Positions 177 to 46,423 of a stretch of DNA of 49,072 bases are shown piece by piece. Position 1 is the first letter of the stretch. Each line of letters opens with the position of its first letter. The notes beneath the pieces are model-generated. The model made no database searches, was not told the origin of the DNA, and was given only the letters and a program-made list of their open reading frames with translations. This DNA is from Patescibacteria group bacterium (lineage in GTDB: Bacteria > Patescibacteriota > JABMPQ01 > JBFLZX01). Made by a program: the position numbers and the translations under genes. The stretch spans positions 1 to 49,072 of the forward strand of contig JBFLZX010000002.1 in NCBI GenBank assembly GCA_040756075.1, in the 5' to 3' direction.

Positions 177-416
177 AATAAAGACCAAAAACCAAATACC
201 AAAAATCAAAAACAAAAATCAAAAACTGACTCCGGTGCATCGGAGTCATCCCGAGCGAGGTCGCCGCGGTAACAGAATCGAGGAATCTCTCGCGAATGCG
301 AGTTCACAAACAAGTTGTGAGGTTCCTCACTTCGGCCAGCTGGGCTGGCTTTTGCTCAGAGCGACTTATTTTTTGTTTTTAGTCTGTAGTTTTGGTCTTT
401 GATTTTTAATTTTTTA
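177..416. repeat. composite palindromic intergenic element
   Basis: Left arm of CCAAAAA/ATCAAAAA-type units (about 181-228) mirrors a right arm of TTTTTG/TTTGGT units (about 369-416). The core holds small GC-rich hairpins (gactccg/cggagtc, ctcgc/gcgag, gtgagg/cctcac, gccagc/gctggc) and a GTCATCCCGAGCGA motif shared with other elements in the window. Confidence 0.6.
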
Positions 417-419
417 TTT

Positions 420-935
420 ATGGCTGCCGCATTTTCACAAATCAATTGGTCTGTTCCATCTTGGGATCTTTTTATTTATCTTTTTTTTGTCGTAGCGGTT
501 ATTTTGTACGGCATGGCGCTGGGAAGAGAACGAGTTTTATCTATTTTAATTAGTATTTATATTGGTTTGGCAATTTCGTCTAATTTGCCTTTTTTAAATG
601 AAAAAACAGCGGCAAAAATTGGTGTTTCTTCGGTATTTACTTTAAAACTTTTGGTTTTTGCCGCCGCGCTAGTGGTTGGTTTTTATGTTTTTTCTCGCGC
701 CGGGGCGCTCGCTTCTCTATCTTCAAGTTCAAAAATTATTCATATTTTTATTTTTTCTGTTTGTCAAGTTGGACTTTTGGTCAGCGTAATTTTATCTTTT
801 TTGCCGCAAACAGTGATAGATTCCTTTTTGCCTCTAACACGTCAATTATTTACTACAGAATTGGCAAGGTTTTTATGGATTTTGGCTCCGCTTGCGGCAA
901 TGTTTTTTGCTAAAAGAACAGGCGAAACAGCTTAA
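420..935 (+). CDS. hypothetical multi-pass membrane protein
   Basis: Long ORF with several hydrophobic helices (e.g. LFIYLFFVVAVILYGMALG, LLVFAAALVVGFYVF). The ATG at 420 is preferred over the TTG at 399, which lies inside the repeat arm. Confidence 0.6.
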   Translation: MAAAFSQINWSVPSWDLFIYLFFVVAVILYGMALGRERVLSILISIYIGLAISSNLPFLNEKTAAKIGVSSVFTLKLLVFAAALVVGFYVFSRAGALASLSSSSKIIHIFIFSVCQVGLLVSVILSFLPQTVIDSFLPLTRQLFTTELARFLWILAPLAAMFFAKRTGETA

Positions 936-2956: not shown

Positions 2957-4279
2957 ATGAAAGTTGCAATTAAAACATTGGGTTGCCGGCTAAATCAGGC
3001 AGAGTCACAGAATTTAATGGAAGAAATTGAATCTTGCGGCATTAATTTGGTTGATTTCAAGAATCAAGCCGATTTATATATTATAAATTCTTGTTCAGTG
3101 ACAAATTTAGCAGATTTTAAATCTCGGCAAGCAGTGCATTTCATTCGAAACAAACATCTAAAAGCAAAAATTTGGGCAACTGGATGTGCGAAAAGTTTAG
3201 TGCGCGAAGCAGATTTATTTTTTGAAGACAAAGAAGAGATTCCAAAAAAAATTCTTGAAGAAATTAATAATCAATTAAATTTTCAAACTAGAAGAGTGTT
3301 GTCATCTAAACACGATCGTAGTAAAATGACAACATTAAAAAGTGAATTAAAATGGGAAAATGAAAGTCTTTTTCGGACAAGGGCTTTTGTGAAAATTCAA
3401 GAAGGATGTGATAATTTCTGTGCTTATTGTATTGTGCCTTATTTGCGTGGGGAACCGAAGAGTATGCCAGCCTGCGAAATAATTAAGAAAATTAATCAGA
3501 AAGTTAATAAAGGATATAAAGAGGTGGTGTTAACAGGAGTGAATATCGGCAAGTACACTTCAAAAATTCCAAATTCCAAAATCCAAATTCCAAATAAATT
3601 CCAAATTCCAAATTCCAAAATCCAAAATATCAATTTATTTGGGTTGCTAAAATTAATACTTAAAAATACAAAAATTCCAAGAATTAGGCTGGGGTCGATA
3701 AATCCAGAAGATATTAATGGCGAATTTATAAATTTATTTCAAAATCTGCGGATGTGCCGGCATCTGCATTTGTCATTGCAGAGCGGGAGTAATAATGTTT
3801 TAGCAAGAATGGATAGAAAATATAATACAAAACGATATGAGAAAATTGTCCGGGAATTTTACCAAAAATACCCAGATTTCAATTTTACGACCGATGTCAT
3901 TGTTGGTTTTCCAGGCGAAACAGAAAAAGAATTTTTGCAAACTTATAATTTTATCAAAAAAATCGGCCTTTCTAAAGTTCATATTTTTCGTTATTCAAAA
4001 AGAAACAACACATACGCTGCAAGAATGAAAAATCAAATTGCAGAGAAGATAAAGTTAGGACGAGCAAAAAAACTAGAAATACTAAATAAAGTTTTAAAGA
4101 AAAATTTTATCAAAAAAATGCAAGGAAAATACGAAAGAGTTTTATTTGAGAATAAAAAACGCGGTTTTTGGCTGGGATTTACAAAGAATTATTTGAGAGT
4201 TAGAATGGAAAGTAGTAAAGACCTAAAAAATAAAATAATATCTATTAGGTTATCAAAGAATAATTTACTAGTCATATAG
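2957..4279 (+). CDS. mtaB: radical-SAM tRNA methylthiotransferase, MtaB-like
   Basis: N-terminal MKVAIKTLGCRLNQAES (UPF0004 domain), radical-SAM CDNFCAYCIVP, and a C-terminal TRAM-like segment. Carries an in-frame repeat insert (see 3561-3630). Confidence 0.85.
   Translation: MKVAIKTLGCRLNQAESQNLMEEIESCGINLVDFKNQADLYIINSCSVTNLADFKSRQAVHFIRNKHLKAKIWATGCAKSLVREADLFFEDKEEIPKKILEEINNQLNFQTRRVLSSKHDRSKMTTLKSELKWENESLFRTRAFVKIQEGCDNFCAYCIVPYLRGEPKSMPACEIIKKINQKVNKGYKEVVLTGVNIGKYTSKIPNSKIQIPNKFQIPNSKIQNINLFGLLKLILKNTKIPRIRLGSINPEDINGEFINLFQNLRMCRHLHLSLQSGSNNVLARMDRKYNTKRYEKIVREFYQKYPDFNFTTDVIVGFPGETEKEFLQTYNFIKKIGLSKVHIFRYSKRNNTYAARMKNQIAEKIKLGRAKKLEILNKVLKKNFIKKMQGKYERVLFENKKRGFWLGFTKNYLRVRMESSKDLKNKIISIRLSKNNLLVI
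3561..3630 (+). repeat. in-frame TTCCAAA/ATCCAAA tandem-repeat insert inside mtaB
   Basis: caaaaattccaaattccaaaatccaaattccaaataaattccaaattccaaattccaaaatccaaaat translates as SKIPNSKIQIPNKFQIPNSKIQN. It has the same unit as the intergenic AAATCCAAA elements. Confidence 0.85.
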
Positions 4280-4441
4280 CTTTTAAATCCAAATGCCAAA
4301 ATCCAAATTTCAAATCAGATCCAAAATCTAAATGACAAATTAACCCTCTTATATAAGTATAAGGGAGGAGGTGGAGGAGTTGTGTTTTAGATTTTAAACT
4401 TTGACATTCATTTGAAATTTGAGCTTTGGATTTTAGATTTT
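4280..4441. repeat. AAATCCAAA-family palindromic intergenic element
   Basis: The left arm (aaatccaaatgccaaaatccaaatttcaaatc...) mirrors the right arm (...gaaatttgagctttggattttagattt). The GC-rich centre is ccctcttatataagtataagggaggaggtggagg. Confidence 0.8.
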
Positions 4442-4772: not shown

Positions 4773-4917
4773 ATGTATCTTGTATCTAGTATCTGGAATC
4801 TAGAATTGAATTTTGAATTATGAATTCCGAATTATATCCGTTTTTAGCGGATAAATATTCATAATTCTTCATTCACGATTCGATTCGAGATACGAGATAC
4901 CAGATTCGAAATTCAAC
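4773..4917. repeat. palindromic intergenic element (GTATCT/GAATT-unit family)
   Basis: gtatcttgtatctagtatctggaatctagaattgaatt... mirrors ...cgattcgagatacgagataccagattcgaaattc, with a central atccg-ttttta-gcggat hairpin. Related element at 43535-43738. Confidence 0.75.
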
Positions 4918-5499: not shown

Positions 5500-6594
5500 A
5501 TGGCAGAATTATCAAATAAAAATTTTGCAGTACAACAAAAAGAGGGCAATGTTTTTCCTTCTGACTTAGTATTGAAATTATTAGAGGGGTTAAATTCACG
5601 AACTAAAAATATTATTATCAAACGTTTTGGCTTAGATGGCCAAGAAAAACAAACTTTAGAGCAAATTGGGCGCCAGTATGGCATTACTCGCGAGAGGGTA
5701 AGACAAATTCAGAGCGCGGCCTTGCGGGAATTTAAAAAATCGCAAAAGATTAAATATTTAGAGCCGCTCGAAGAACAATTAAAATCTTTATTACAAAAAA
5801 ATGGCCATGCAATGGAATATCAAAATTTAGTTAAATCTTTTAAAGAAAAAATTAATGATCCAAAGCTCCACGGAAATCATTTAGAATTTGCCTTGACTTT
5901 ATCTCCGCATTTTGAAAATGTATCTGAAAATGAAACAAACAGGCGCGGCTGGAAAACAAAAAATGTGTCAAAAGATATACCAGAGAAAGTAATTCAAATT
6001 TTTTGTGATATTTTACAAAAAGAAAAAAAACCTTTGCCTGAAGATCACGCAGTAACTGTTGTTCTTAACCATAATCAAGTCAAAAATTTATCCGAAGAAG
6101 CAAAGACTCGTGAAGCTATTTTATCATATTTTAATCTGTCAAAAAAAGTTCTAAAAAATCCTTTTGGCGAGTGGGGGCTGACGCTGTGGTCAGAAATTTT
6201 ACCACGCGGCGTGAAAGATAAGGCATATTTAGTTTTAAAAAAGGCGGGAAAGCCTTTGCATTTTCGCGAAATTACAAATTTAATCAATGAAAAAGGTTTT
6301 TCAAAAAGACCAGCCAATGCTCAAACCGTGCATAATGAATTAATTAAAGATAAACGATTTGTTTTAGTTGGTCGGGGAATGTATGCTTTAGTTGAGTGGG
6401 GTTATCGGCCAGGAACAGTGATTGATGTGGTTAGCGCGGTTTTAAAAGAAGCAAAAACAGCTTTGGGCCGCGAGGAAATCGTAAAGAAAGTTTTGAAACA
6501 GCGAAAAGTAAAAAAGAACACAATTATTTTGGCTTTGCAAAATAAAGAAAAGTTTGAAAGAGTCGGGGAAGGAATGTACAAACTCGCGGAGTAA
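5500..6594 (+). CDS. sigma-70 region-4-like HTH protein with C-terminal HARE-HTH-like domain
   Basis: The N-terminal segment RFGLDGQEKQTLEQIGRQYGITRERVRQIQSAALREFKK matches the sigma-70 region 4 pattern. The C-terminal segment AYLVLKKAGKPLHFREI...FVLVGRGMYALVEW resembles HARE-HTH. Confidence 0.7.
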   Translation: MAELSNKNFAVQQKEGNVFPSDLVLKLLEGLNSRTKNIIIKRFGLDGQEKQTLEQIGRQYGITRERVRQIQSAALREFKKSQKIKYLEPLEEQLKSLLQKNGHAMEYQNLVKSFKEKINDPKLHGNHLEFALTLSPHFENVSENETNRRGWKTKNVSKDIPEKVIQIFCDILQKEKKPLPEDHAVTVVLNHNQVKNLSEEAKTREAILSYFNLSKKVLKNPFGEWGLTLWSEILPRGVKDKAYLVLKKAGKPLHFREITNLINEKGFSKRPANAQTVHNELIKDKRFVLVGRGMYALVEWGYRPGTVIDVVSAVLKEAKTALGREEIVKKVLKQRKVKKNTIILALQNKEKFERVGEGMYKLAE

Positions 6595-6760
6595 ATTCCA
6601 AATTACAAGCACCAAATTCTGTCCCTGCGGGACATCTTCCGAAGGGAGGCAAATAAACTCAAAATTCAAATATCAAATGACCAAAACATCAATATTTTGA
6701 ATTTGTAATTTTGGTCATTGGGATTTATTTGTGATTTGGAATTTGAGATTTGGAATTTTT
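6595..6760. repeat. AAATTCCAAA-family palindromic intergenic element
   Basis: aaattccaaattacaagcaccaaatt... mirrors ...gtgatttggaatttgagatttggaattt. An inner pair is caaatgaccaaaa/ttttggtcattg. Confidence 0.75.
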
Positions 6761-16371: not shown

Positions 16372-17142
16372 ATGAAAAAACTCATTTTAGCCGCAGTTGG
16401 ATTACTTTTAATCTTTCCAACTTTAACATTCGCAAGTGGTTACAATTCTTGGACAAGGCAGCGTCTTGGGCCAAGTACAGGTTATGGTGAGCCAAAAATG
16501 TCGGCTAACGGAAAATATATGGTTGTTCAAAAGATGGCAGGGCCGATTCATACCGGCACTTTTTGGTTTTTTAAGGTAAAGGGCGCAAAACCTCTTTGGC
16601 GCTATAAAGGAAGCAAAATTTTTGATTTAGCAATTTCCAAAAAAGGGGATTATGTTGCCGCGGTTGGCAGTAAGATTCAGCTTTTTTCAAAAAAATCAAA
16701 AAGGCCGCTTTGGTCAAATAACTTGGGAGTGAGTGTTATGGACAGCGTAGCGATTACCCCTGATGGGAATTATATTGTCACCGGTGATCGTTTTGGCACG
16801 GTTTTTCTTTTTGAAAAAGGAAATAGAAATTCTATTAAGACCTGGCGCGTTTTTCCTGGTGAATTTGTTAACAAAGCGGTTATTTCCTCTGACGGCAAGT
16901 ATCTTGTAGTAGGTTCGGATCTAGGCGTTGCATTATTAGATCGAAATAAAAACAATCCGGTTTGGAAATATAAAACAAAGGAAGCAGATGGAAGCGCGGA
17001 TAGCATTTTACATTTGTCGATGTCTTCCTCTGGCAAATATTTTGTTGCTACGACAAGTCAAGGAGATAATTTGTATTTATTTAACAAAAATAAAAGAAAG
17101 CCAAAATGGACATATCATCAGGATAGTTTTCATCCTATTTAA
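16372..17142 (+). CDS. secreted PD40/WD40-like beta-propeller protein, 5' part (frameshift-split)
   Basis: Signal peptide MKKLILAAVGLLLIFPTLTFA. There are periodic blades of the type [ST]..G.Y[IV].. then ..P.W.. (SANGKYMVV, SKKGDYVAAVG, TPDGNYIVTGD, SSDGKYLVVGS, SSSGKYFVATT). Confidence 0.7.
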   Translation: MKKLILAAVGLLLIFPTLTFASGYNSWTRQRLGPSTGYGEPKMSANGKYMVVQKMAGPIHTGTFWFFKVKGAKPLWRYKGSKIFDLAISKKGDYVAAVGSKIQLFSKKSKRPLWSNNLGVSVMDSVAITPDGNYIVTGDRFGTVFLFEKGNRNSIKTWRVFPGEFVNKAVISSDGKYLVVGSDLGVALLDRNKNNPVWKYKTKEADGSADSILHLSMSSSGKYFVATTSQGDNLYLFNKNKRKPKWTYHQDSFHPI

Positions 17143-18049
17143 TGCTTCAATTTCTTCTGACGGCAAGTATATAACATTAGCAAGCAATGATAAGTATTTA
17201 GGCTTTTTGACTAATAGCAACGTGCCAAAATGGACTTTTGAATTAGACGGCAGACAGCCAGACGTTAGCCAATCTGCTAACGGCAAATACATTGCTATTG
17301 CTGATAATCTGGATTATCTTTATCTTTTTGATCGGACATATGGAAGTTCACAGCGGCCATTTAGAATTTATGAGGGTGCTTTTCCTGATGCTTTAACTTT
17401 AAGCAGTAAAGGAGATAAATTAGTTTATGATGAACGAGATTTGCATTATCAGGAAATTATCCCAGGTGTATTATCCGATTTGCAGGATAGAGCGGCAATT
17501 TATGTTAAGGGTCAAGATATGAATATACGGATTTTTGCGACAAATCCAGGCAAAGCAAGAAGAATGAATGTCCAGGTGCGGCTGTCATTGCCTACTATCG
17601 CTTGGTGGGAAAATATCGGCGATCAAGTAAAAAATGAAAATGATAATTTAGTTTCAAAAGCAATAAGTTTATTAATGGAAGGGTATGGCGGGGATACAAT
17701 TTATGACAAAACTTTTACTTTTGAAGCGCAGAAAAGCAGGACAATCAGCGAAACATTTGAAGTGCCGGCCTTAAACCAGCCAGACTGGTATAATTCTTGG
17801 TATATGTCTTTTTTGAGCGGAGGAAGTATTTTAATTGGCCGATTAATTGATAAATTAGGCGATGCTTTGGAATATGTTTTGCCGGATGTAATTGCTAATA
17901 CTATTACTGCTGGATTGCGAACAATGAGCGAAGGCGGAAACCCAACTTTTTATCCAACTATTGGTTTGGGTAAAGTCATTTTGTCTGATCCAGACACCGG
18001 CGAAGTTATAGATTCCGATACCTTTACTTTTGCCTTTATACTTTCGTAA
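16988..18049 (+). CDS. same beta-propeller protein, 3' part (meaningful coding only from about 17140)
   Basis: The blade pattern continues in the +1 frame (NASISSDGKYITLAS, VPKWTFEL, SANGKYIAIAD). The first ~50 codons of the called ORF overlap the 5' part in another frame. Confidence 0.65.
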   Translation: MEARIAFYICRCLPLANILLLRQVKEIICIYLTKIKESQNGHIIRIVFILFNASISSDGKYITLASNDKYLGFLTNSNVPKWTFELDGRQPDVSQSANGKYIAIADNLDYLYLFDRTYGSSQRPFRIYEGAFPDALTLSSKGDKLVYDERDLHYQEIIPGVLSDLQDRAAIYVKGQDMNIRIFATNPGKARRMNVQVRLSLPTIAWWENIGDQVKNENDNLVSKAISLLMEGYGGDTIYDKTFTFEAQKSRTISETFEVPALNQPDWYNSWYMSFLSGGSILIGRLIDKLGDALEYVLPDVIANTITAGLRTMSEGGNPTFYPTIGLGKVILSDPDTGEVIDSDTFTFAFILS

Positions 18050-18201: not shown

Positions 18202-19536
18202 ATGGTTATAAAAAACTCAAAATTTGAATATAACAATTTTGATGCTATAGCATCAAAATTGTTAGCAGTAAAAAAAGTTGATTTTGGCCAAAAAATTAAA
18301 ATTTTCTCTGGGCGAGGTCGAAAAGTCATTGTCGCGATGTCTGGCGGAGTAGATAGTTCAGTAGCCGCAGTGGTTTTGAAAAGCCAAGGTTATGATGTCC
18401 GCGGTGTCTTTATGCATTTTTGGACGGAAAAGTCAAATGACGAGCTAGAATACCATGTTCAAAATCGTTGTTGCTCCATTGAGGCGCAAGAAATGGCGCG
18501 GAGAGTGGCCCAGAAACTTAATATTCCCTTTTACACTTTGAATTTTGAAAAAGAATTTAAAAAATATGTTGTGGATTATTTTATTTCTGAATATGAGGCG
18601 GACAGGACGCCAAATCCATGTGTGATGTGCAATAAGTGGATAAAGTTTGATTTTCTGTTGAGTAAAGTTAAGGCGCTCGGAGCTGATTATTTAGCAACCG
18701 GTCACTATGTTATAAAATCCGAAATTCGAAATCCGAAATCCGAAACAAATTCAAAATTACAAATTCGAAATTCAAAACAAAATGTCATCCCAAGCTCTTC
18801 GACTTCGCTCAGGACAGGCTTCGTCGAGGGATCTCATAGCCAAGAAATTATTTATAAATTATTTAAAGCAAAAGATAAAAACAAAGATCAATCATATTTT
18901 TTATATAATTTGACACAAAGACAACTTGAGCACATTTTATTTCCTATCGGCGATTATACAAAAATTCAGGTACGAGCAATGGCAAAAAAATGGGGTATTC
19001 CTTCTGCAGAAAGAAGAGAGTCACAGGAAATTTGTTTTATTTTAGAAAAAGATTACGGCGCTTTTTTGAAAAGATATATCAGAAATGTTAAACAAGGTAA
19101 AATTATAGATCAAAGCGGAAAGATTATCGGCCAGCACCAAGGTCTGCCTTTTTATACTATTGGTCAGCGGAAAAAAATTGGAGCATCTTTTGGACCTTAT
19201 TATGTTTTCGCCAAAGATATAAAGAAAAATATTTTATATGTAACCAACGACCCAAAAGATAAAAGATTGTTTTCTGGTAGTTTAATTGTTGAAAAAGTTA
19301 ATTGGATTTCCGGCGTTGCTCCAAAATTGCCATTTAATTGTGAAGTGAAAATTCGTTATAGGACCACATCTGAGCCAGCACAAATTGTTAAAAAAATAAA
19401 AAATAATTTTTTAATTAAACTTAAAAATCCTGTCCGTGCCGCAACACCGGGTCAGGCAGCGGTAATTTATAAAAAAGAAGAATTAGTGGGCGGAGGAATA
19501 ATTTTATCCACTTTTTACCCTCTTGATATTAAGTAA
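18202..19536 (+). CDS. mnmA: tRNA-specific 2-thiouridylase MnmA
   Basis: PP-loop VIVAMSGGVDSSVAA, then NPCVMCN, DYLATGHY, KDQSYFLY and a C-terminal beta-barrel region. The start is uncertain: ATG 18202 or in-frame TTG 18259, both near or inside the palindrome. Carries a ~130-nt in-frame repeat insert. Confidence 0.88.
   Translation: MVIKNSKFEYNNFDAIASKLLAVKKVDFGQKIKIFSGRGRKVIVAMSGGVDSSVAAVVLKSQGYDVRGVFMHFWTEKSNDELEYHVQNRCCSIEAQEMARRVAQKLNIPFYTLNFEKEFKKYVVDYFISEYEADRTPNPCVMCNKWIKFDFLLSKVKALGADYLATGHYVIKSEIRNPKSETNSKLQIRNSKQNVIPSSSTSLRTGFVEGSHSQEIIYKLFKAKDKNKDQSYFLYNLTQRQLEHILFPIGDYTKIQVRAMAKKWGIPSAERRESQEICFILEKDYGAFLKRYIRNVKQGKIIDQSGKIIGQHQGLPFYTIGQRKKIGASFGPYYVFAKDIKKNILYVTNDPKDKRLFSGSLIVEKVNWISGVAPKLPFNCEVKIRYRTTSEPAQIVKKIKNNFLIKLKNPVRAATPGQAAVIYKKEELVGGGIILSTFYPLDIK
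18231..18264. repeat. perfect 34-bp palindrome
   Basis: taacaattttgatgcta|tagcatcaaaattgtta, checked base by base. Both strands therefore encode NNFDAIASKLL. Confidence 0.9.
18714..18843 (+). repeat. in-frame composite repeat insert inside mnmA
   Basis: aaatccgaaattcgaaatccgaaatccgaaacaaattcaaaattacaaattcgaaattcaaaac is followed by gtcatcccaagctcttcgacttcgctcagg..cgtcgagggatctcatagc, a half copy of the GTCATTCCGAGCGA element. It translates as SEIRNPKSETNSKLQIRNSKQNVIPSSSTSLRTGFVEGSHSQ. Confidence 0.85.
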
Positions 19537-21693: not shown

Positions 21694-21823
21694 TTTTAAA
21701 ATCCAAAATCCAAAGTTCAAATGTCAAATCAAATCTAAAACCCAAATGACAAATATTTTATTTTTTGGATTTTGAGCTTTGAGCTTGATTTGGAATTTAG
21801 ATTTTGACATTTGGGTTTTAATT
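21694..21823. repeat. AAATCCAAA-family palindromic intergenic element
   Basis: aaaatccaaaatccaaagttcaaatgtcaaatcaaatctaaaacccaaatgacaaat mirrors tttggattttgagctttgagcttgatttggaatttagattttgacatttgggtttt. Confidence 0.8.
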
Positions 21824-23593
21824 ATGTTTTCTTACGAACTTCGCACTAAATTTTTAAATTTTTTTAAACAAAAAGACCACAAAATTCTGCCTTCTTTTTC
21901 TTTAATTCCTCGCGATGATCCATCGGTTCTTTTGACTACCGCGGGAATGCAGCAATTTAAAGGATGGTTTTCGGGTATAGAAACTCCAAAATATTTAAGG
22001 GTTGCGACCTGCCAAAAATGTGTAAGAACATCAGACATTGAAGAAGTTGGAGATAAGACTCATTTGACATTTTTTGAAATGTTGGGGAATTTTTCTTTTG
22101 GAAATTACTGGAAAAAAGAAGCAATTACCTGGAGTCTGGAGTTTTTAACAAAAGAATTAAAGATTAATCGTAAAAGAATTTCGGCGACAATTTTTAGAGG
22201 CGATAAAGGTGTTTCGCGCGACAATGAATCATATAAGATTTTAAAAAATTTAAATTTTGACGATGATGAAATTAAAGAGAGAAATCGGCAGGACAATTTT
22301 TGGGGGCCGACGGGAAGCGAGGGTCCTTGCGGCCCGACAGTGGAATTTTATGTTGATGAGGTGGAGGTTTGGAATTTGGTTTTTAATGAATACTACAAGA
22401 CAAATCCCAAATCCCAAATCCTAAATTCTAAACAAATTCAAAATTCAAAATTCAAAATTCAAAAATTAAGAAATAAATCTTTAATTCCGTTAAAACAAAA
22501 AGGAGTAGATACGGGGATGGGGCTGGAGCGGGTTTTAGCGATTTTAAATAATAAAAAAAGTGTCTATGAAACTGATTTATTTGAATCTTTAATCTTTAAT
22601 CTTAAATCTAAAATCTTAAATCTAAAATCTATTAGAATAATTTGTGATCATGTTAAAGCGGCGGTGTTTTTAATTTCTGATGGTGTTGTGCCGTTAAATA
22701 TTGAACAGGGATACGTTTTACGGAGATTAATAAGGCGAGCAATTCGGCATCTATATTTACTTGATATTAAAAAAGAAAACATATTATTAGAGTTAGCAAA
22801 AAACGTTATTGAAATTTATCAAAAAATTTATTCGGAACTTTCACAAAATAAGAACAAAATTTTTAAGGAATTAAATAAAGAACAGGAGAAATTCGGCAAA
22901 ACATTAGGACGCGGTTTGCGTGAATTTGAAAAAATATATAAATCATTGATCATCAATCATCAATCATTAATCAATGGAGTCGCTGTTTTTCATTTATATG
23001 ATACTTATGGTTTTCCATTAGAACTGACTCGCGAATTGGCAAATGAAAAAAATATGAAAATTGATGAAGCAGGTTTTTGGCAGGAATTCAAAAGACATCA
23101 ACAAATTTCTCGCGCCGGCATGACCAAAAAATTCAAGGGCGGATTGGCAGAACAAAATCTAAAAACAACAAAATTACACACCGCGACGCATCTTTTACAT
23201 CAAGCTCTGCGCCAGATTTTAGGCAATCATATTAAACAGATGGGATCTAATATAACAAGCGAGCGGTTGCGCTTTGATTTTTCCCATCCCAAAAAATTAA
23301 CTTTTGATGAAATTAAAAAAGTTGAGAATTTGGTTAATCAGAAAATAAAGGAAAAATTAAAAGTAGATTTTTCCGAAATGCCTTATCAAAAAGCAATAAA
23401 AGAAGGCGCTTTTGCATTTTTTAAAGAGAAATACCCGGAAGTAGTTAGAGTTTATAACATCGGAAACTTCAGTAAAGAAATTTGCCGCGGACCGCATGTA
23501 AAAACGACTTCTGAACTCGGACATTTTAAAATTACAAAAGAAGAGTCTTCTTCGGCTGGAGTAAGGAGAATAAAAGCGGTTATTGAACAATGA
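21824..23593 (+). CDS. alaS: alanine--tRNA ligase, short form ending after the editing domain
   Basis: FSYELRTKFLNFFKQKDHKILPSFSLIP, TTAGMQQFK, WNLVFNEY, GVDTGMGLERV, editing-domain HTATHLLHQALR, and CRGPHV...GVRRIKAV at the C-terminus. ATG 21824 is preferred over the upstream start, which lies in the repeat. Confidence 0.88.
   Translation: MFSYELRTKFLNFFKQKDHKILPSFSLIPRDDPSVLLTTAGMQQFKGWFSGIETPKYLRVATCQKCVRTSDIEEVGDKTHLTFFEMLGNFSFGNYWKKEAITWSLEFLTKELKINRKRISATIFRGDKGVSRDNESYKILKNLNFDDDEIKERNRQDNFWGPTGSEGPCGPTVEFYVDEVEVWNLVFNEYYKTNPKSQILNSKQIQNSKFKIQKLRNKSLIPLKQKGVDTGMGLERVLAILNNKKSVYETDLFESLIFNLKSKILNLKSIRIICDHVKAAVFLISDGVVPLNIEQGYVLRRLIRRAIRHLYLLDIKKENILLELAKNVIEIYQKIYSELSQNKNKIFKELNKEQEKFGKTLGRGLREFEKIYKSLIINHQSLINGVAVFHLYDTYGFPLELTRELANEKNMKIDEAGFWQEFKRHQQISRAGMTKKFKGGLAEQNLKTTKLHTATHLLHQALRQILGNHIKQMGSNITSERLRFDFSHPKKLTFDEIKKVENLVNQKIKEKLKVDFSEMPYQKAIKEGAFAFFKEKYPEVVRVYNIGNFSKEICRGPHVKTTSELGHFKITKEESSSAGVRRIKAVIEQ
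22401..22467 (+). repeat. in-frame AAATCCCAAA/AAATTCAAA repeat insert in alaS (site 1)
   Basis: caaatcccaaatcccaaatcctaaattctaaacaaattcaaaattcaaaattcaaaattcaaaaa translates as NPKSQILNSKQIQNSKFKIQK. It lies between WNLVFNEY and GVDTGMGLER. Confidence 0.85.
22586..22631 (+). repeat. in-frame AATCTTAAATCTAAA repeat in alaS (site 2)
   Basis: ctttaatctttaatcttaaatctaaaatcttaaatctaaaatct translates as LIFNLKSKILNLKS. Confidence 0.75.
22941..22975 (+). repeat. in-frame CATTGATCATCAATCAT repeat in alaS (site 3)
   Basis: aatcattgatcatcaatcatcaatcattaatcaat translates as SLIINHQSLIN. It has the same unit as the element at the alaS stop codon (23590-23632). Confidence 0.75.
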
Positions 23594-29190: not shown

Positions 29191-29409
29191 ATGGTTAAAC
29201 AAAAAAATATTATTGAAATGAGGGGTAAAGTAGAAGAAACTCTGCCTGACGCAAGGTTTAAAGTAAGATTAGCAAATGGTCATATAGTTTTTGGCACTCT
29301 TTCGGGAAAAATGAAAATGAATAAAATTAGCGTCTTGGCTGGCGATGAAGTAACAATTGAACTTACGCCATACGATCTTTCAAAGGGAAGAATTACCCGC
29401 CGGCATTGA
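29191..29409 (+). CDS. infA: translation initiation factor IF-1
   Basis: 72-aa S1-like OB fold. [22 protein letters not shown]...[35 protein letters not shown] matches the IF-1 pattern. Confidence 0.95.
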
Positions 29410-29579
29410 ACATTGAACATTAAACATTGATCATTGATCAATGAACTACCTCGCAGCAAGCTGCGAGGTATCAAATGTCATTTCGAGCGAAGCGAGAAAT
29501 CTCATAGCCGTGAGATTCCTCGACTCCCCCTCGACTTCGCTCGGGGTCGCTCGGAATGACCCCGAAGTAAGCTTCGGGG
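29405..29579. repeat. composite element: CATTGA units, a CAGCAAG-loop hairpin, the GTCATTTCGAGCGA element and a CCCGAAG hairpin
   Basis: cattgaacattgaacattaaacattgatcattgatcaatgaac; then tacctcgcagcaagctgcgaggta; then 29477-29560, bounded by gtcatttcgagcga/tcgctcggaatgac; then ccccgaagtaagcttcgggg. Confidence 0.8.
29477..29560. mobile_element. 84-nt MITE-like element with GTCATTTCGAGCGA / TCGCTCGGAATGAC termini
   Basis: ~14-bp inverted termini with one mismatch. A reverse-complement copy with a nested insert lies at 41599-41781. Confidence 0.6.
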
Positions 29580-29726: not shown

Positions 29727-29803
29727 ATCGCAAAACGTGTAACGTATAACTTATAACTCAAGAATCGAAACTTGCGTTACAAGTTACAAGTTACAAGTTA
29801 CAA
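29727..29803 (+). repeat. TTACAAG-family hairpin element, copy 1 (upstream of rpmJ)
   Basis: atcgcaaaacgtgtaacgtataacttataac-tcaagaatcgaaac-ttgcgttacaagttacaagttacaagttaca. Identical over ~75 nt to copy 2. Confidence 0.85.
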
Positions 29804-29808
29804 ATTAT

Positions 29809-29922
29809 ACGAAGGTTCGCGCATCAGTAAAAAAAATTTGTGATAAATGTAAAGTAGTCCGGCGCAAAAGGCGGGTTTATATTATTTGCCAAAACCCAAA
29901 GCATAAACAAAGACAAGGCTAA
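29809..29922 (+). CDS. rpmJ: ribosomal protein L36 (no canonical start codon; ACG at the expected position)
   Basis: Hand translation from 29812 gives [36 protein letters not shown], the L36 pattern with a CxxC...C...H zinc motif. The codon before K is ACG. The in-frame upstream stretch back to the TAA at 29740 holds no ATG/GTG/TTG. Confidence 0.75.
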
Positions 29923-29998
29923 TCGCAAAACGTGTAACGTATAACTTATAACTCAAGAATCGAAACTTGCGTTACAAGTTACAAGTTACAAGTTACAC
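29922..29998 (+). repeat. TTACAAG-family hairpin element, copy 2 (upstream of rpsM)
   Basis: Same sequence as copy 1. It ends ..gttacaagttacacgagg immediately before ATG 30003. Confidence 0.85.
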
Positions 29999-31646: not shown

Positions 31647-31720
31647 TCGCAAAACGTATAACATATAACGTATAACGTAAGTTGAAAAAACGTTACATGT
31701 TACAAGTTACACGTTACACG
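31646..31720 (+). repeat. TTACAAG-family hairpin element, copy 3 (upstream of rpoA)
   Basis: atcgcaaaacgtataacatataacgtataacgtaagttgaaaaaacgttacatgttacaagttacacgttacacg. It starts at the last base of the rpsD stop codon and ends 5 nt before ATG 31726. Confidence 0.8.
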
Positions 31721-32682: not shown

Positions 32683-32754
32683 ATTGCAAAACATGTAACG
32701 CGTAATTTATAACTCAAGAATTGAAACTTGCGTTACAAGTTACAAGTTACACAA
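32683..32754 (+). repeat. TTACAAG-family hairpin element, copy 4 (upstream of rplQ)
   Basis: attgcaaaacatgtaacgcgtaatttataactcaagaattgaaacttgcgttacaagttacaagttacaca. Confidence 0.8.
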
Positions 32755-32757
32755 TTA

Positions 32758-33260: not shown

Positions 33261-33728
33261 ATGAAATTACATATCCCAAAAACCCACTTACCAAAGGCAA
33301 AAGAAATCAAACGCGCCTGGCATCTGCTGGATGCAAAAGACATTTCGTTGGGCAGGCTGGCAAGCAAGGCGGCCTTTTTGCTTATTGGAAAGCATAGGCG
33401 CGACTACACCTCACATCTTGATTTAGGTGATTTTGTTGTTGTTATAAATGCAAAAAAAATAAAAATTACGGGCAATAAATTAGAAGGCAAAATTTATCAT
33501 CGTTATACCGGATATCTTGGTCATCTTAAGAATATTAAATTACAGGAAAAATTTGAAAAAGATCCCCAATGGGTTATTAAGAAAGCAGTAAAAGGAATGA
33601 TTCCGGCAAATCGTCTGCGGCCGCAGCGACTTTGCAGATTAAAAGTATTCGTTGATGAAAAGCACCCCTATATTAATAAATTCCAAATTTCAAATCATAA
33701 ATCCCAAATAAATTCAAAATTCAAATGA
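33261..33728 (+). CDS. rplM: ribosomal protein L13 with a repeat-derived C-terminal tail
   Basis: WHLLDAKDISLGRLASKAAFLLIGKHR..YT...D.GD.VVVINA.KI..TG.K...K.YY.H.TGY.G matches the L13 pattern. The last ~17 aa (NKFQISNHKSQINSKFK) are translated repeat. Confidence 0.92.
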   Translation: MKLHIPKTHLPKAKEIKRAWHLLDAKDISLGRLASKAAFLLIGKHRRDYTSHLDLGDFVVVINAKKIKITGNKLEGKIYHRYTGYLGHLKNIKLQEKFEKDPQWVIKKAVKGMIPANRLRPQRLCRLKVFVDEKHPYINKFQISNHKSQINSKFK

Positions 33729-33815
33729 CTTAAATTCAAAACAGTTTTGAATTTTGAATTTTGAGCATTTAATATTGTTTAGTATTTCGTGCTTAGAATT
33801 TAGAATTTATTTAGT
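33675..33815. repeat. AAATTCAAA-family palindromic element overlapping the rplM 3' end
   Basis: aataaattccaaatttcaaatcataaatcccaaataaattcaaaattcaaatgac mirrors gttttgaattttgaattttgagcattt...cttagaatttagaatttattt. Confidence 0.75.
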
Positions 33816-40374: not shown

Positions 40375-40530
40375 AATTTTTGATATAGTAATAAGAGAAT
40401 TTACAATTTAATAAATCCAAAATCCAAAGCTCAAATGCCAAATGAATATCAAATGATAAAAATCTAAATAATTTTTTGTCATTTTGATTTTGGATTTAAT
40501 TTGAAATTTGGATTTTGACATTTGGATTTA
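40375..40530. repeat. AAATCCAAA-family palindromic intergenic element
   Basis: aaatccaaaatccaaagctcaaatgccaaatgaatatcaaatga... mirrors ...tcattttgattttggatttaatttgaaatttggattttgacatttggattt. Confidence 0.8.
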
Positions 40531-41541
40531 ATGTTGAATAATTGCTCTATCTGTGGCCATCGCAGAATTATTTCCGCCTTACAAAAAAATATTCGCCAGG
40601 ATCGACTTGCCCATGCTTATTTATTTTCCGGGCCAGAGGCGGTTGGCAAGAAGACCGTTGCTTTAAATTTTGTTAAAACTTTGCAATGTGAGGGGCGGGA
40701 AAAGCCTTGCGGAATGTGCCAAACTTGTTTTCAGATTGAAAAAAATATTCATCCGGATACGATTATTTTTCAAAAAGACATAACGGGCGATTCAAAAGGA
40801 GGACAAGAAATCAAGATTTTTGAAATGCGGGATATCCAAAAGAAAATGAGTTTGAAACAATATAGCGCGCCGTATAAAATTTTACTGCTAGATCGAGCAG
40901 AAAATCTAAATGACGAAGCGGCAAATTCGCTTTTAAAATTTTTAGAAGAGCCAAAAGGCAAAACTTTAATTATATTAATTACTAATAATATTAATATGGT
41001 TTTGCCGACAATTATTTCCCGCTGTGTTACGATAAATTTTTTATTAGTGCCAAAAAACGAGATGCTAAAATATTTTGAAAGGAAGGTTGAAGCTTTACAA
41101 TCCAAAACATACGGAGCGCAAAACCTAAATTTAGAAGAAATAATAAATTATTCTTTAGGTCGGCCGGGAAATGTTATTAGATGGTTAGAAAACCCAAAAG
41201 ATTTTATAGAAAGCAAAGAAATTGTCAAAAATTTTGCAAAAGTTGTTTTAGCAGATAATATAACAGAAAAATTCAAATTTATTTCGCAGTTTTATAATAA
41301 AAAAGAAGAAAGTATTAAATTATTGATGCATCTTCTTATGTTTTATCAGCATCTGTTATCATGGCAGATTGGTCGGGAGGATTTAGAAGATGATAAGGAA
41401 ATAAGACAATTTGCTAGGCGATATGAGATTAATAAAATTAGAAATGCTTTATTTCAAATTATTTCTGCTAAAAAATTTATTTTACAGAACGCCAATTTAA
41501 AACTTGTTTTAGAAAATATGATGCTGAACATTGGCCATTAG
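40531..41541 (+). CDS. holB: DNA polymerase III delta' subunit
   Basis: RLAHAYLFSGPEAVGKKTVALNFVKTLQC, the zinc module CGMCQTCFQIEKNIHPD, and SRC-like IISRC. 336 aa from ATG 40531. Confidence 0.82.
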   Translation: MLNNCSICGHRRIISALQKNIRQDRLAHAYLFSGPEAVGKKTVALNFVKTLQCEGREKPCGMCQTCFQIEKNIHPDTIIFQKDITGDSKGGQEIKIFEMRDIQKKMSLKQYSAPYKILLLDRAENLNDEAANSLLKFLEEPKGKTLIILITNNINMVLPTIISRCVTINFLLVPKNEMLKYFERKVEALQSKTYGAQNLNLEEIINYSLGRPGNVIRWLENPKDFIESKEIVKNFAKVVLADNITEKFKFISQFYNKKEESIKLLMHLLMFYQHLLSWQIGREDLEDDKEIRQFARRYEINKIRNALFQIISAKKFILQNANLKLVLENMMLNIGH

Positions 41542-41598
41542 CCATTGATCAATGTTCGATGTTTAATGATTTAAATTCCCCGAAGCTTGTCTTATATC

Positions 41599-41781
41599 GT
41601 CATTCCGAGCGACCCTGAGCGAACAAAGTGAGTCGAAGGGGAGTCGAGGAATCTCATAAGCTGTGAGATTTCTCTCCCCCACCATTTTCTCAACAAATAT
41701 TCACTGACTATTTCTCGTTTCTTTTAAATCTTAGAAAGATTATTTCAAGGGTTGTAATACATGGTGGGGGATCGAAATGAC
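41599..41781. mobile_element. GTCATTCCGAGCGA-type MITE-like element (reverse orientation relative to 29477-29560) carrying a nested insert
   Basis: gtcattccgagcgaccctgagcgaa..gagtcgaggaatctcataagctgtgagatttctc[insert]tcgaaatgac aligns with the reverse complement of 29477-29560. Confidence 0.65.
41675..41771. mobile_element. 97-nt nested element with 11-bp TCCCCCACCAT / ATGGTGGGGGA termini
   Basis: Perfect 11-bp inverted termini interrupt the host element. Confidence 0.55.
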
Positions 41782-42890: not shown

Positions 42891-42968
42891 TTGCGAAACT
42901 TGTAACGTATAACATATAACTCAAGAAGTAAAACTTGCGTTACAAGTTATATGTTACAAGTTACACGA
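42891..42968 (+). repeat. TTACAAG-family hairpin element, copy 5 (upstream of frr)
   Basis: ttgcgaaacttgtaacgtataacatataactcaagaagtaaaacttgcgttacaagttatatgttacaagttacacga. Confidence 0.8.
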
Positions 42969-46231: not shown

Positions 46232-46423
46232 ATTATTAGGCTAAAAATTCTAAATCCAAAATTATCCCGATTTTATCGAGGATTCTCGACAAAGTCGGAA
46301 CAAATTGCAAATAAATTTCAATAATCAAAATTCTAAATTACAAAATGTTTTAGTTATTAGATATTAGAATTTAGATATTATTTGGAATTTGGTGCTTGGT
46401 GTTTGGAATTTAATTTATTTATT
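46232..46423. repeat. AAATCCAAA-family palindromic intergenic element
   Basis: aaaaattctaaatccaaaatt... mirrors ...atttggaatttggtgcttggtgtttggaattt. The centre contains cccgattttatcgaggattctcgac. Confidence 0.7.

Follow-up and report, generated by a model that had tools for sequence, protein, structure and literature searches.

A gene for a tRNA-modifying enzyme in a member of the Patescibacteria carries a block of repetitive DNA within its reading frame, and this block is probably best regarded as repeat DNA that has turned coding and is now translated and tolerated as a protein loop, in a manner analogous to the Rickettsia palindromic elements (RPEs). A probability of about 0.7 is attached to this interpretation. 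The gene, mnmA, lies at 18202..19536 on the forward strand of a 49,072-nucleotide stretch of DNA (Patescibacteria group bacterium, assembly GCA_040756075.1, contig JBFLZX010000002.1, positions 1 to 49,072), which was analysed as a whole and is referred to here as the window. Pfam, matches in the PDB and a structural model identify the product of this open reading frame (ORF) of 444 aa as a tRNA 2-thiouridine(34) synthase of the CxxC...C type. The composite insert occupies 18715..18843 of the same strand, a length of 129 nt or 43 codons, and encodes residues 172-214 (KSEIRNPKSETNSKLQIRNSKQNVIPSSSTSLRTGFVEGSHSQ). Its first part is a 64-nt module of tandem heptamers, further copies of which lie in frame in two other genes of the window and as inverted pairs between genes, and its second part is GC-rich and resembles a palindromic repeat found elsewhere in the same DNA. 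Arrays built in the same way recur in the corresponding loop of MnmA proteins from other Patescibacteria. The inserted segment would be translated with the rest of the protein and is likely to be neutral, or nearly so.

The MnmA enzyme and its inserted loop

Apart from the insert, MnmA appears, from its sequence and its predicted structure, to be a complete and normal enzyme with its catalytic motifs intact. Pfam recognized three of three domains, namely the HUP domain (PF03054), the PRC-barrel (PF20259) and the C-terminal barrel (PF20258), and a phmmer search of the PDB returned MnmA/TrmU structures from E. coli, S. pneumoniae and others (2DER, 2HMA, 9HLN) at E-values of 1e-77 to 1e-79. The nearest homologues in the databases searched are just 62-63% identical, and the nearest with a short loop (P0006) is 55% identical. 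An alignment of 120 sequences, this protein included, places the PP-loop motif SGGxDS (S47-G-G-V-D-S52) in invariant or nearly invariant columns; C143 and C278, the equivalents of E. coli C102 and C199, are invariant and C140 also occupies an invariant column. The first ~37 residues of the ORF as listed (18202-18312) form a low-confidence N-terminal extension that lacks a counterpart in most homologues, and the listed start codon is tentative.

The phmmer alignment pairs residues 37-176 with residues 15-148 of E. coli MnmA and residues 219-436 with residues 152-374. Between the two paired blocks lie ~42 residues of the query as against 3 in the E. coli enzyme, a net surplus of ~39, and the insert is left unaligned against both the E. 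coli and the B. subtilis proteins. An earlier note, made from the letters of this DNA, had reported an extra segment here that keeps the frame and contains no stop, and this is borne out for 18715-18843 (129 nt, ~39 net residues). Two of its supporting statements need revision: the distance between ATGHYV and KDQSYF, which it had put at about ten residues in other MnmA proteins, is 18-21 in ordinary MnmA, and its description of the enzyme as essential is overstated for MnmA in general. Mutants of E. coli mnmA are viable. Its placing of the insert in the conserved core was correct as to the catalytic domain, but the position within that domain is the tip of a hairpin.

This position emerges from an AlphaFold2 model built with the 120-sequence alignment. 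The model has a mean pLDDT (predicted local distance difference test) of 86.8, most ten-residue blocks of the three domains exceed 90, and Foldseek superposes it on 2DER, 2DET and 2HMA with TM (template modelling) scores of 0.91-0.92. Residues 177-215, with block means of 44-55, are predicted to be disordered and lie between strands 170-176 and 216-222. The insert is thus modelled as a disordered excursion at the tip of a β-hairpin of the catalytic domain, clear of the PP-loop and of the cysteines, and the hairpin tip would constitute a permissive surface position, contact with bound tRNA being conceivable. The check for a surface loop that the earlier note had proposed is in agreement on the predicted model, with the enzyme otherwise intact.

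The heptamer module (18715..18778, forward strand, 64 nt) is delimited by TRF (Tandem Repeats Finder), blastn and a gap-free alignment with two other genic copies. It reads AAATCCG, AAATTCG, AAATCCG, AAATCCG, AAAC and then AAATTCA, AAATTAC, AAATTCG, AAATTCA, AAAC. TRF reports a 7-nt array at 18715-18777 together with a super-period of 32 nt, the latter arising because each of the two blocks of four heptamers is closed by AAAC. The unit is therefore a heptamer of the AAATCCG type, arranged as four units, AAAC, four units and AAAC, and not the 10-mer proposed earlier. Allowing at most one mismatch, AAATCCGAAA occurs 35 times in the window against an expectation of 16.8, a count reached in none of 100 shuffles. 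A 7-nt unit is not a multiple of three, and excision of the 64-nt module by itself would shift the mnmA frame. The frame in use is free of stops across the whole of 18715-18843, and the chance that the insert would be both in frame and stop-free is ~0.01. No inverted repeat was found inside the insert, so that the copy in mnmA is not itself a palindrome, and its RNA folding z-scores (+0.35 and -0.24) are not significant. Tryptic peptides predicted from the region are QNVIPSSSTSLR and TGFVEGSHSQEIIYK.

The least credible of the explanations considered is that the segment is an artefact of assembly or that mnmA is a decaying pseudogene. Repeats common to several loci can mislead assemblers, and the upstream gene at 16222-18049 is split by a 1-nt frameshift, so that errors or decay do occur nearby. 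Against this, both flanks of the insert are contiguous mnmA in a single frame, with the catalytic residues in invariant columns, and a chimera would need both to exit the gene and to return to it in the correct phase. In-frame arrays of a comparable kind are moreover found in this loop in independent assemblies from JGI, ENA, NCBI and Logan.

Repeat families of the window and of other MnmA loops

Two further genes of the window contain the module in frame. One copy, at 22402..22465 on the forward strand, lies in alaS (ORF 21824-23593) and encodes NPKSQILNSKQIQNSKFKIQK; over 63 nt (22402-22464) it is 86% identical to the mnmA module (blastn E 3.7e-10). It corresponds to an insertion of 22 residues that is missing from an alanyl-tRNA synthetase (AlaRS) of 52% identity, and stops interrupt all of the six frames except the one in use. 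The other, at 3564..3628 on the forward strand, lies in a gene for a MiaB/MtaB-like radical-SAM methylthiotransferase (ORF 2957-4279), where it encodes IPNSKIQIPNKFQIPNSKIQN and gives the protein ~13 residues more than Bacteroides MiaB (7MJV). The copies in mnmA, alaS and the MiaB/MtaB-like gene align position for position with zero gaps, and the three genes read them in three different frames (KSEIRNP, NPKSQIL and IPNSKIQ); the entity that they share is therefore DNA and not a peptide. Two more heptamer arrays, of AATCTTA and ATCATCA types, are present in alaS at 22581-22631 and 22942-22973. Relative to the AlaRS of contig L083 they add two and four residues respectively, as though native sequence had been overwritten.

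All three of the array-bearing genes in the window encode tRNA enzymes, a class with four members among its ~42 ORFs (hypergeometric probability 3.5e-4). This pointed to a specificity of the module for tRNA enzymes, an idea that was weakened by metagenomic hosts outside tRNA biology.

Between genes the module occurs with its reverse complement. A profile of the three genic copies, searched with nhmmer, detected at least eight intergenic plus/minus pairs in the window, and the sequences of these unstranded hairpins often enclose a GC-rich core. The pair 4288/4386 forms a hairpin at 4288..4437, and others lie at 21700-21815 (21700/21764), 33678-33807 (33678/33743), 40416-40526 (40416/40480), 46295-46410 (46295/46360), 16095-16248 (16095/16234), 6588-6757 (6588/6695) and 4785-4916 (4785/4891).

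The GC-rich part of the insert (18784..18841, forward strand) can be identified by alignment and blastn as the left half, in diverged form, of a palindromic element of the GTCAT type, a resemblance that is piecewise only and resides in the blocks GTCATCCCAAGC, TCGACTTCGCTCAGG and GTCGAGGGATCTCATAGCC. In order, this part reads GTCATCCCAAGC TCTTCGACTTCGCTCAGGACAGGCTTC GTCGAGGGATCTCATAGCC. The GTCATCCCAAGC block matches the ends of GTCATTCCGAGCGA palindromes, the middle block runs in the opposite orientation to that of the copies at 29477 and 41599, and the last block matches the stretch leading into the palindrome centre. A comparison of the GC-rich part with all 120-nt tiles of both strands of the window ranked the elements at 41.6 kb and 29.5 kb highest, and of nine short blastn matches five fell within the 174 nt of these two elements (binomial 7e-11, the matches being not fully independent). 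One of the two is a complete intergenic palindrome, GTCATTTCGAGCGA...TCGCTCGGAATGAC, at 29477..29560, with a CATTGAA heptamer array before it (29404-29446). A second intergenic element, at 41599..41680 on the forward strand, consists of a left half and the centre and is preceded by degenerate CATTGNN heptamers. The copy in mnmA terminates at ATCTCATAGCC, the central sequence of the palindrome 29477-29560, and is therefore a left half: it has the 5' GTCATCCCAAGC and lacks the inverted 3' partner, whereas the full copy has both.

The order of the two parts is also repeated. An intergenic composite hairpin at 180..420 has an A-rich heptamer arm, a GC core opening with GTCATCCCGAGC at 245 and a T-rich inverted arm, so that its arm-then-GTCAT order is that of mnmA, and a heptamer array followed by a GTCAT motif is found at three further places (180-260, 29404-29490 and 41530-41612). 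Judged by these alignments, the mnmA insert appears to have the layout of the left half of a composite heptamer-GTCAT element. The earlier view that the insert is built of the same two repeat types as the intergenic elements of the window thus agrees with blastn, profile and tile alignment, and its phrase "half of an element" was fair, given that the copy ends at the palindrome centre and that the GC resemblance is piecewise. The sequence TATAAA occurs near both ends of the insert, but the frame would not be recovered by deleting the segment between these copies, and the background is AT-rich. No transposase family was detected by Pfam among the scanned window ORFs of at least 100 aa (two ORFs fell outside the scan), and no REP-associated tyrosine transposase (RAYT) was seen in the window.

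The same loop was compared in other MnmA proteins, measured from GHY to KDQSYF in the best 120 matches, which are mostly from Patescibacteria. Its length ranges from 15 to 74 residues and exceeds the norm of 19-21 found outside the candidate phyla radiation (CPR) in 83 of 119 of these best homologues. Non-CPR control genes, taken from among the matches listed in a profile scan of genome contigs with an MnmA alignment, have loops of 20-22 residues, as measured in that set, without 7-nt periodicity. Common loop peptides (REIPNPKSQIP, REFPISNFQFP, EIRNPKSEIRN and KSKVKSQKSKV) resemble heptamer arrays read in frame. Most of these were examined as protein only; the DNA was read for seven array-bearing mnmA genes, from contigs L081, L083, L085, L007, L139, L196 and L197, and has four-heptamer arrays in the loop of each. 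The array is (AAATCCG)x4+AAAC in L083, L139 and L197, (AAATCCC)x4+AAAC in L085 and L196, and (AATTTCC)x4 in L081 and L007. A block of exactly four units plus AAAC is present in the window and in L083, L085, L081, L139 and L197, and the copy number was not seen to vary.

These data also address whether the insert might be a native variable loop, an alternative that the earlier note had raised. The loop is indeed expanded in most of the Patescibacteria homologues, and peptides like EIRNPKSEIRN occur in distant ones, but wherever its DNA was read the loop is the same repeat, identical at the nucleotide level; the site is therefore one occupied, repeatedly or persistently, by the repeat and not a native protein loop. 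Two frames are in use there, AAA-TCC in the window and L196 and GAA-ATC in L083 and L085, and a neighbour-joining tree nests long-loop MnmA proteins among short-loop relatives. Because of these two features, the loop arrays suggest that a favoured or permissive site was hit repeatedly, and not that a single ancient insertion took place. The P0013, P0015, P0016 and P0023 lineages have a different element in the loop, and in L084 (P0016) the DNA reveals a full GC palindrome, GTCATTGCGAGG...CTCGCAATGAC. The GTCATTGCGAGG motif also lies at ~5868 in a Mur ligase gene of L085 (4578-6128), with an inverted partner near ~5969, which suggests that this gene holds a complete GC palindrome; taken with the palindrome of L084, it shows that GC elements enter coding sequence as well. 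The P0002 loop (L082) is similar in length to that of the window protein and has in common with its insert just TTCAACTTCG-like remnants, so that homology of the two inserts is possible.

An alternative that requires no foreign element is that the array grew in place, by expansion of a native A-rich loop through replication slippage. The variation in loop length over Patescibacteria, the frequency of A-rich Lys and Asn codons in a host genome of ~35% GC and the additional alaS arrays, which entail almost no net change in length relative to L083, are all in its favour. It is nonetheless very improbable, since alaS and the MiaB/MtaB-like gene contain a 64-nt module with the same two-part build and punctuation, the copy number is fixed at four, an identical 32-nt string is present in at least 120 unrelated contigs (see below) and the attached GTCAT half-palindrome cannot come from slippage.

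On the preferred interpretation, that of repeat DNA turned coding, the founding event would have been at the level of DNA, either an insertion or a templated copying from one of the many copies elsewhere, the route of entry being conjectural. Only those events would have survived that kept the frame, contained no stop and landed in a permissive surface segment, and the result would be ~40 hydrophilic, disordered residues at the hairpin tip with the catalytic parts untouched. An unstable palindrome may subsequently have lost one half at its centre, the right half and the T-rich arm having gone; this is proposed because the mnmA copy ends at the exact GTCAT centre and the T-rich arm is absent. 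Such a loss would also take the hairpin out of the mRNA.

Distribution and conservation of the module

Metagenome contigs were scanned for exact matches to (AAATCCS)4AAAC, which was found in at least 120 of them, three or four of the matches listed lying in MnmA. Among contigs below 45% GC, 29 of the 41 listed copies are inside ORFs of at least 200 aa, each with at least 30 codons on both sides, 23 of them on the A-rich strand and 6 on the T-rich strand. Were the frame of no consequence, no more than one third of the copies should be so placed (P ~1e-6).

This bias bears on the suggestion in the earlier note that the segment is removed before the product matures, whether by an intron or other intervening sequence, by translational bypassing (as in the mitochondrial 'byps' and T4 gene 60) or by an intein. 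The insert is a discrete foreign block, and CPR rRNA genes are known for insertions that are removed post-transcriptionally. Removal is nevertheless exceedingly improbable. Rfam, at gathering thresholds, recognized a tRNA-Lys only across the whole window, and no intron; 129 nt is far below the size of group I or group II introns, and the RNA structure is not significant. An intein would comprise at least ~130 residues and have an N-terminal Cys or Ser, a C-terminal His-Asn and a Cys, Ser or Thr after it; the 43 residues here begin with K, end with Q and are followed by E, and every hallmark of an intein is absent. Above all, the frame is kept and stops are avoided beyond chance, both in mnmA and in the metagenomic copies, a constraint that would be needless if the segment were removed or bypassed.

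The hosts are varied. Pfam assigned the 57 long ORFs that span listed copies, at any GC content, to class I aminoacyl-tRNA synthetases (six), TsaD (four), SecA (three), MnmA (three), Mur ligases (three), GatA (two), DegT aminotransferases (two) and ClpB-type ATPases (two), with radical-SAM enzymes also represented. The manner of accommodation varies too. In GatA (L086, residues 243-255) the counterpart of the module in an alignment with Aquifex GatA is a native stretch that is equally long, so that the module is a replacement, and in TsaD (L111) the net gain from the module is 6 residues only. The T-rich orientation (LFGIWDLGFGI, FGFRISDFGF / FRISDFGFRI) is in frame in TrmD and four others. 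By eye, four contigs (L097, L127, L184 and L188) have the T-rich module at apparently the same site in prepilin-peptidase-like membrane proteins; L113 also carries it. The orientation of the module may track the hydrophobicity that the site accepts.

At 45% GC and above, up to ~70%, an inverted partner lies within 200 nt of 16 of the 81 listed copies, forming hairpins of 150-200 nt, and among the matches listed the same 32-nt string is found in contigs from 30 to 70% GC. In L089, L117, L122, L153, L156, L161, L187, L202 and others of this high-GC group the string is the outer stem of such hairpins. Some of these hairpins adjoin a stop codon, and elsewhere the module is at the N-terminus of prepilin-like ORFs. 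In about half of all listed copies, as in the window, AAAC is followed by another block of heptamers in the same phase. The module hairpins correspond to no Rfam family, the sub-threshold matches being to plant miRNA precursors only, which are generic long hairpins. A literature search with the repeat DNA strings and the encoded peptides returned primers only, and one for in-frame repeats in CPR genomes, or for works citing RPEs, found nothing relevant.

Conservation at the nucleotide level is seen in the mnmA genes of L083, L139 and L197, in which the module is identical at 39 of 39 nt between flanks of 59-75% identity. A short GC hairpin is seen directly 5' of the array in the mnmA loops of L083 (6875-6890), L139, L197, L081 (4735-4750) and L007, with stems of CCGCC/GGCGG, CCCGGC/GCCGGG and CGCGGA/TCCGCG. 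Among these five sequences the stem covaries, CCCGGC/GCCGGG having been reached by a synonymous exchange of Arg codons (CGC..CGG to CGG..CGC); the L007 stem is entirely different and its amino acids have changed. The hairpin is absent from the mnmA of the window. As a general part of the module it is ruled out, being present in 12 of 121 contexts.

Several of these observations weigh against mere tolerance of the insert as junk DNA. Such tolerance does not account for 39 nt of perfect identity amid diverged flanks, for a first block that is always exactly four heptamers and AAAC, for the covarying 5' GC hairpin of several MnmA genes or for the persistence of inserts in streamlined genomes. The equal-length replacement in GatA, as aligned, would suit copying or conversion better than plain insertion, and in the window neither a transposase nor terminal inverted repeats or a duplicated target site could be assigned to the mnmA copy. 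The conservation suggests that the module is maintained or renewed as nucleotide sequence, through mobility, biased conversion or function.

The corresponding alternative holds that selection, or an active process acting on nucleic acid, keeps the module in place, or that its Lys/Asn/Ser-rich peptide has been exapted, perhaps to bind tRNA through an additional loop. The process might be self-propagation as a mobile element, biased conversion, a molecular drive like that of uptake signals, or use of the module as a site for binding or regulation in DNA or mRNA. This alternative would explain the 39/39 identity of L083, L139 and L197 in spite of their flanks, the GatA replacement at unchanged length, the covariation of the MnmA hairpin with its synonymous Arg exchange, and a format of four heptamers plus AAAC that is fixed across genomes even as the heptamers vary (CCG, CCC, TTTCC). 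It would equally accommodate the single 32-nt string of the 30-70% GC contigs, with long hairpins in those of high GC, and the restriction of window arrays to three tRNA enzymes (3.5e-4). It is nonetheless unlikely. With every one of the three frames, and either orientation, in use, no single peptide is conserved, and SecA, Mur ligases, ClpB and DegT are among the hosts, so that no tRNA-specific role is indicated. The window copy in mnmA is itself imperfect and without the GC hairpin, the covariation is that of five sequences and the hairpin is found in just 12 of 121 general contexts, and no partner protein or mobility gene was identified.

A more far-reaching proposal can be put forward tentatively, as possible but doubtful. 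According to this, (AAATCCS)4-AAAC-(AAATTCA)4 would represent an undescribed class of protein-coding selfish or functional DNA that crosses phyla and is actively kept in any frame, whether by mobility, by biased conversion or uptake, or because a conserved factor binds it. It would form hairpins between genes and persist mainly inside essential CPR genes, with the MnmA hairpin tip as a recurrent target.

Neighbouring features, known systems and implications

Some other features of the window lie outside the heptamer and GTCAT families. A second repeat family of ~75 nt, AATCGCAAAACGTGTAACGTATAACTTATAAC...CTTGCGTTACAAGTTACAAGTTACAAGTTACA, occurs at 29734-29807, 29929-29997, 31653-31720, 32690-32755 and 42895-42965, in each case immediately upstream of a start codon, the genes being an rpmJ-like ORF, rpsM, rpoA, rplQ and frr. 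It may serve translation genes specifically, as a leader or as a hairpin for processing. The L36 (rpmJ)-like ORF, at ~29809-29925, seemingly has no ATG, GTG or TTG start; ACG precedes AAG GTT CGC, within ATTATACGAAGG. The split gene beside mnmA consists of ORFs 16222-17142 and 16988-18049, which jointly match one 557-aa β-propeller gene of L081 (residues 3-258 and 257-557). The 1-nt shift is near 17135-17142, in the T run CATCCTATTTAATGC, and reflects either a sequencing error or a pseudogene.

Translated repeat DNA of this general kind has a precedent. RPEs (Ogata et al. 2000, 2002, summarised in PMC10969869) are described as in-frame repeat DNA translated in Rickettsia housekeeping genes at positions compatible with the protein fold, and each RPE is reported to encode a conserved peptide. 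The resemblance lies in a short, hairpin-type repeat that occurs both between genes and in frame in unrelated housekeeping genes of a reduced genome. The differences are considerable. The host is of the Patescibacteria type, in another phylum, and the sequence is presumably unrelated to that of RPEs. Genic copies of the module are not palindromic, each being a single heptamer-built arm or half a palindrome, and genes use it in any of three frames and in either orientation, with its 32-nt string common to very different genomes of 30-70% GC. By analogy, the module would work like an RPE without being a member of that family.

The distribution of the module also recalls uptake sequences. Those of Haemophilus (uptake signal sequence, USS) and Neisseria (DNA uptake sequence, DUS) have a core of 9-12 nt, are lineage-specific and occur in coding regions in any frame and orientation. 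Like them, the module is a fixed DNA motif, conserved as DNA, that lies in tolerant protein segments and as inverted pairs between genes, and that can overwrite native sequence at equal length (GatA), the resemblance being distributional only. It differs in comprising 32-64 nt of tandem heptamers and in crossing phyla.

Heptameric repeats as such are familiar. Cyanobacterial short tandemly repeated repetitive (STRR) sequences are abundant intergenic direct repeats of 7 nt. The TAACTGA repeats of the Beggiatoaceae are likewise abundant and intergenic, with a function that is unclear or regulatory (PMC4679880). Their heptamers are different, and a fixed four-unit block, hairpins of inverted arms and copies in coding sequence do not form part of their description. 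Tandem repeats inside the ORFs of Borgs create disordered protein regions and arise independently, according to the abstract of that study (PMC9879509). Both systems have nucleotide repeats in ORFs that add intrinsically disordered segments; the difference is that here a common module recurs over genes and genomes. The GTCAT element, being GC-rich, hairpin-forming, dispersed in several copies and bounded by the terminal inverted repeats GTCATTCCGAGCGA / TCGCTCGGAATGAC, is reminiscent of MITEs, the miniature transposable elements with inverted repeats, and of repetitive extragenic palindromes and their mosaics (REP/BIME), but the mnmA copy differs from a MITE in being a half without the second terminal repeat. 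Phase-variable repeat loci differ in another respect, the module consisting of punctuated blocks of four units and not of a long uninterrupted tract.

By itself the mnmA insert is a benign loop, and it exposes a widespread phenomenon that is undescribed in the literature searched. It raises the question of what keeps a 32-nt block identical across genomes of 30-70% GC while its flanks have diverged by 25-40%. If the interpretation of the insert as tolerated, translated repeat DNA is true, the CPR/Patescibacteria would, like Rickettsia, be a lineage whose conserved enzymes routinely accommodate repeat DNA. A defined cause could then be given for spurious 'low-complexity' regions and for insertions in the loops of marker genes, which matters for annotation and phylogeny, and minimal genomes would have a ready source of disordered surface loops.

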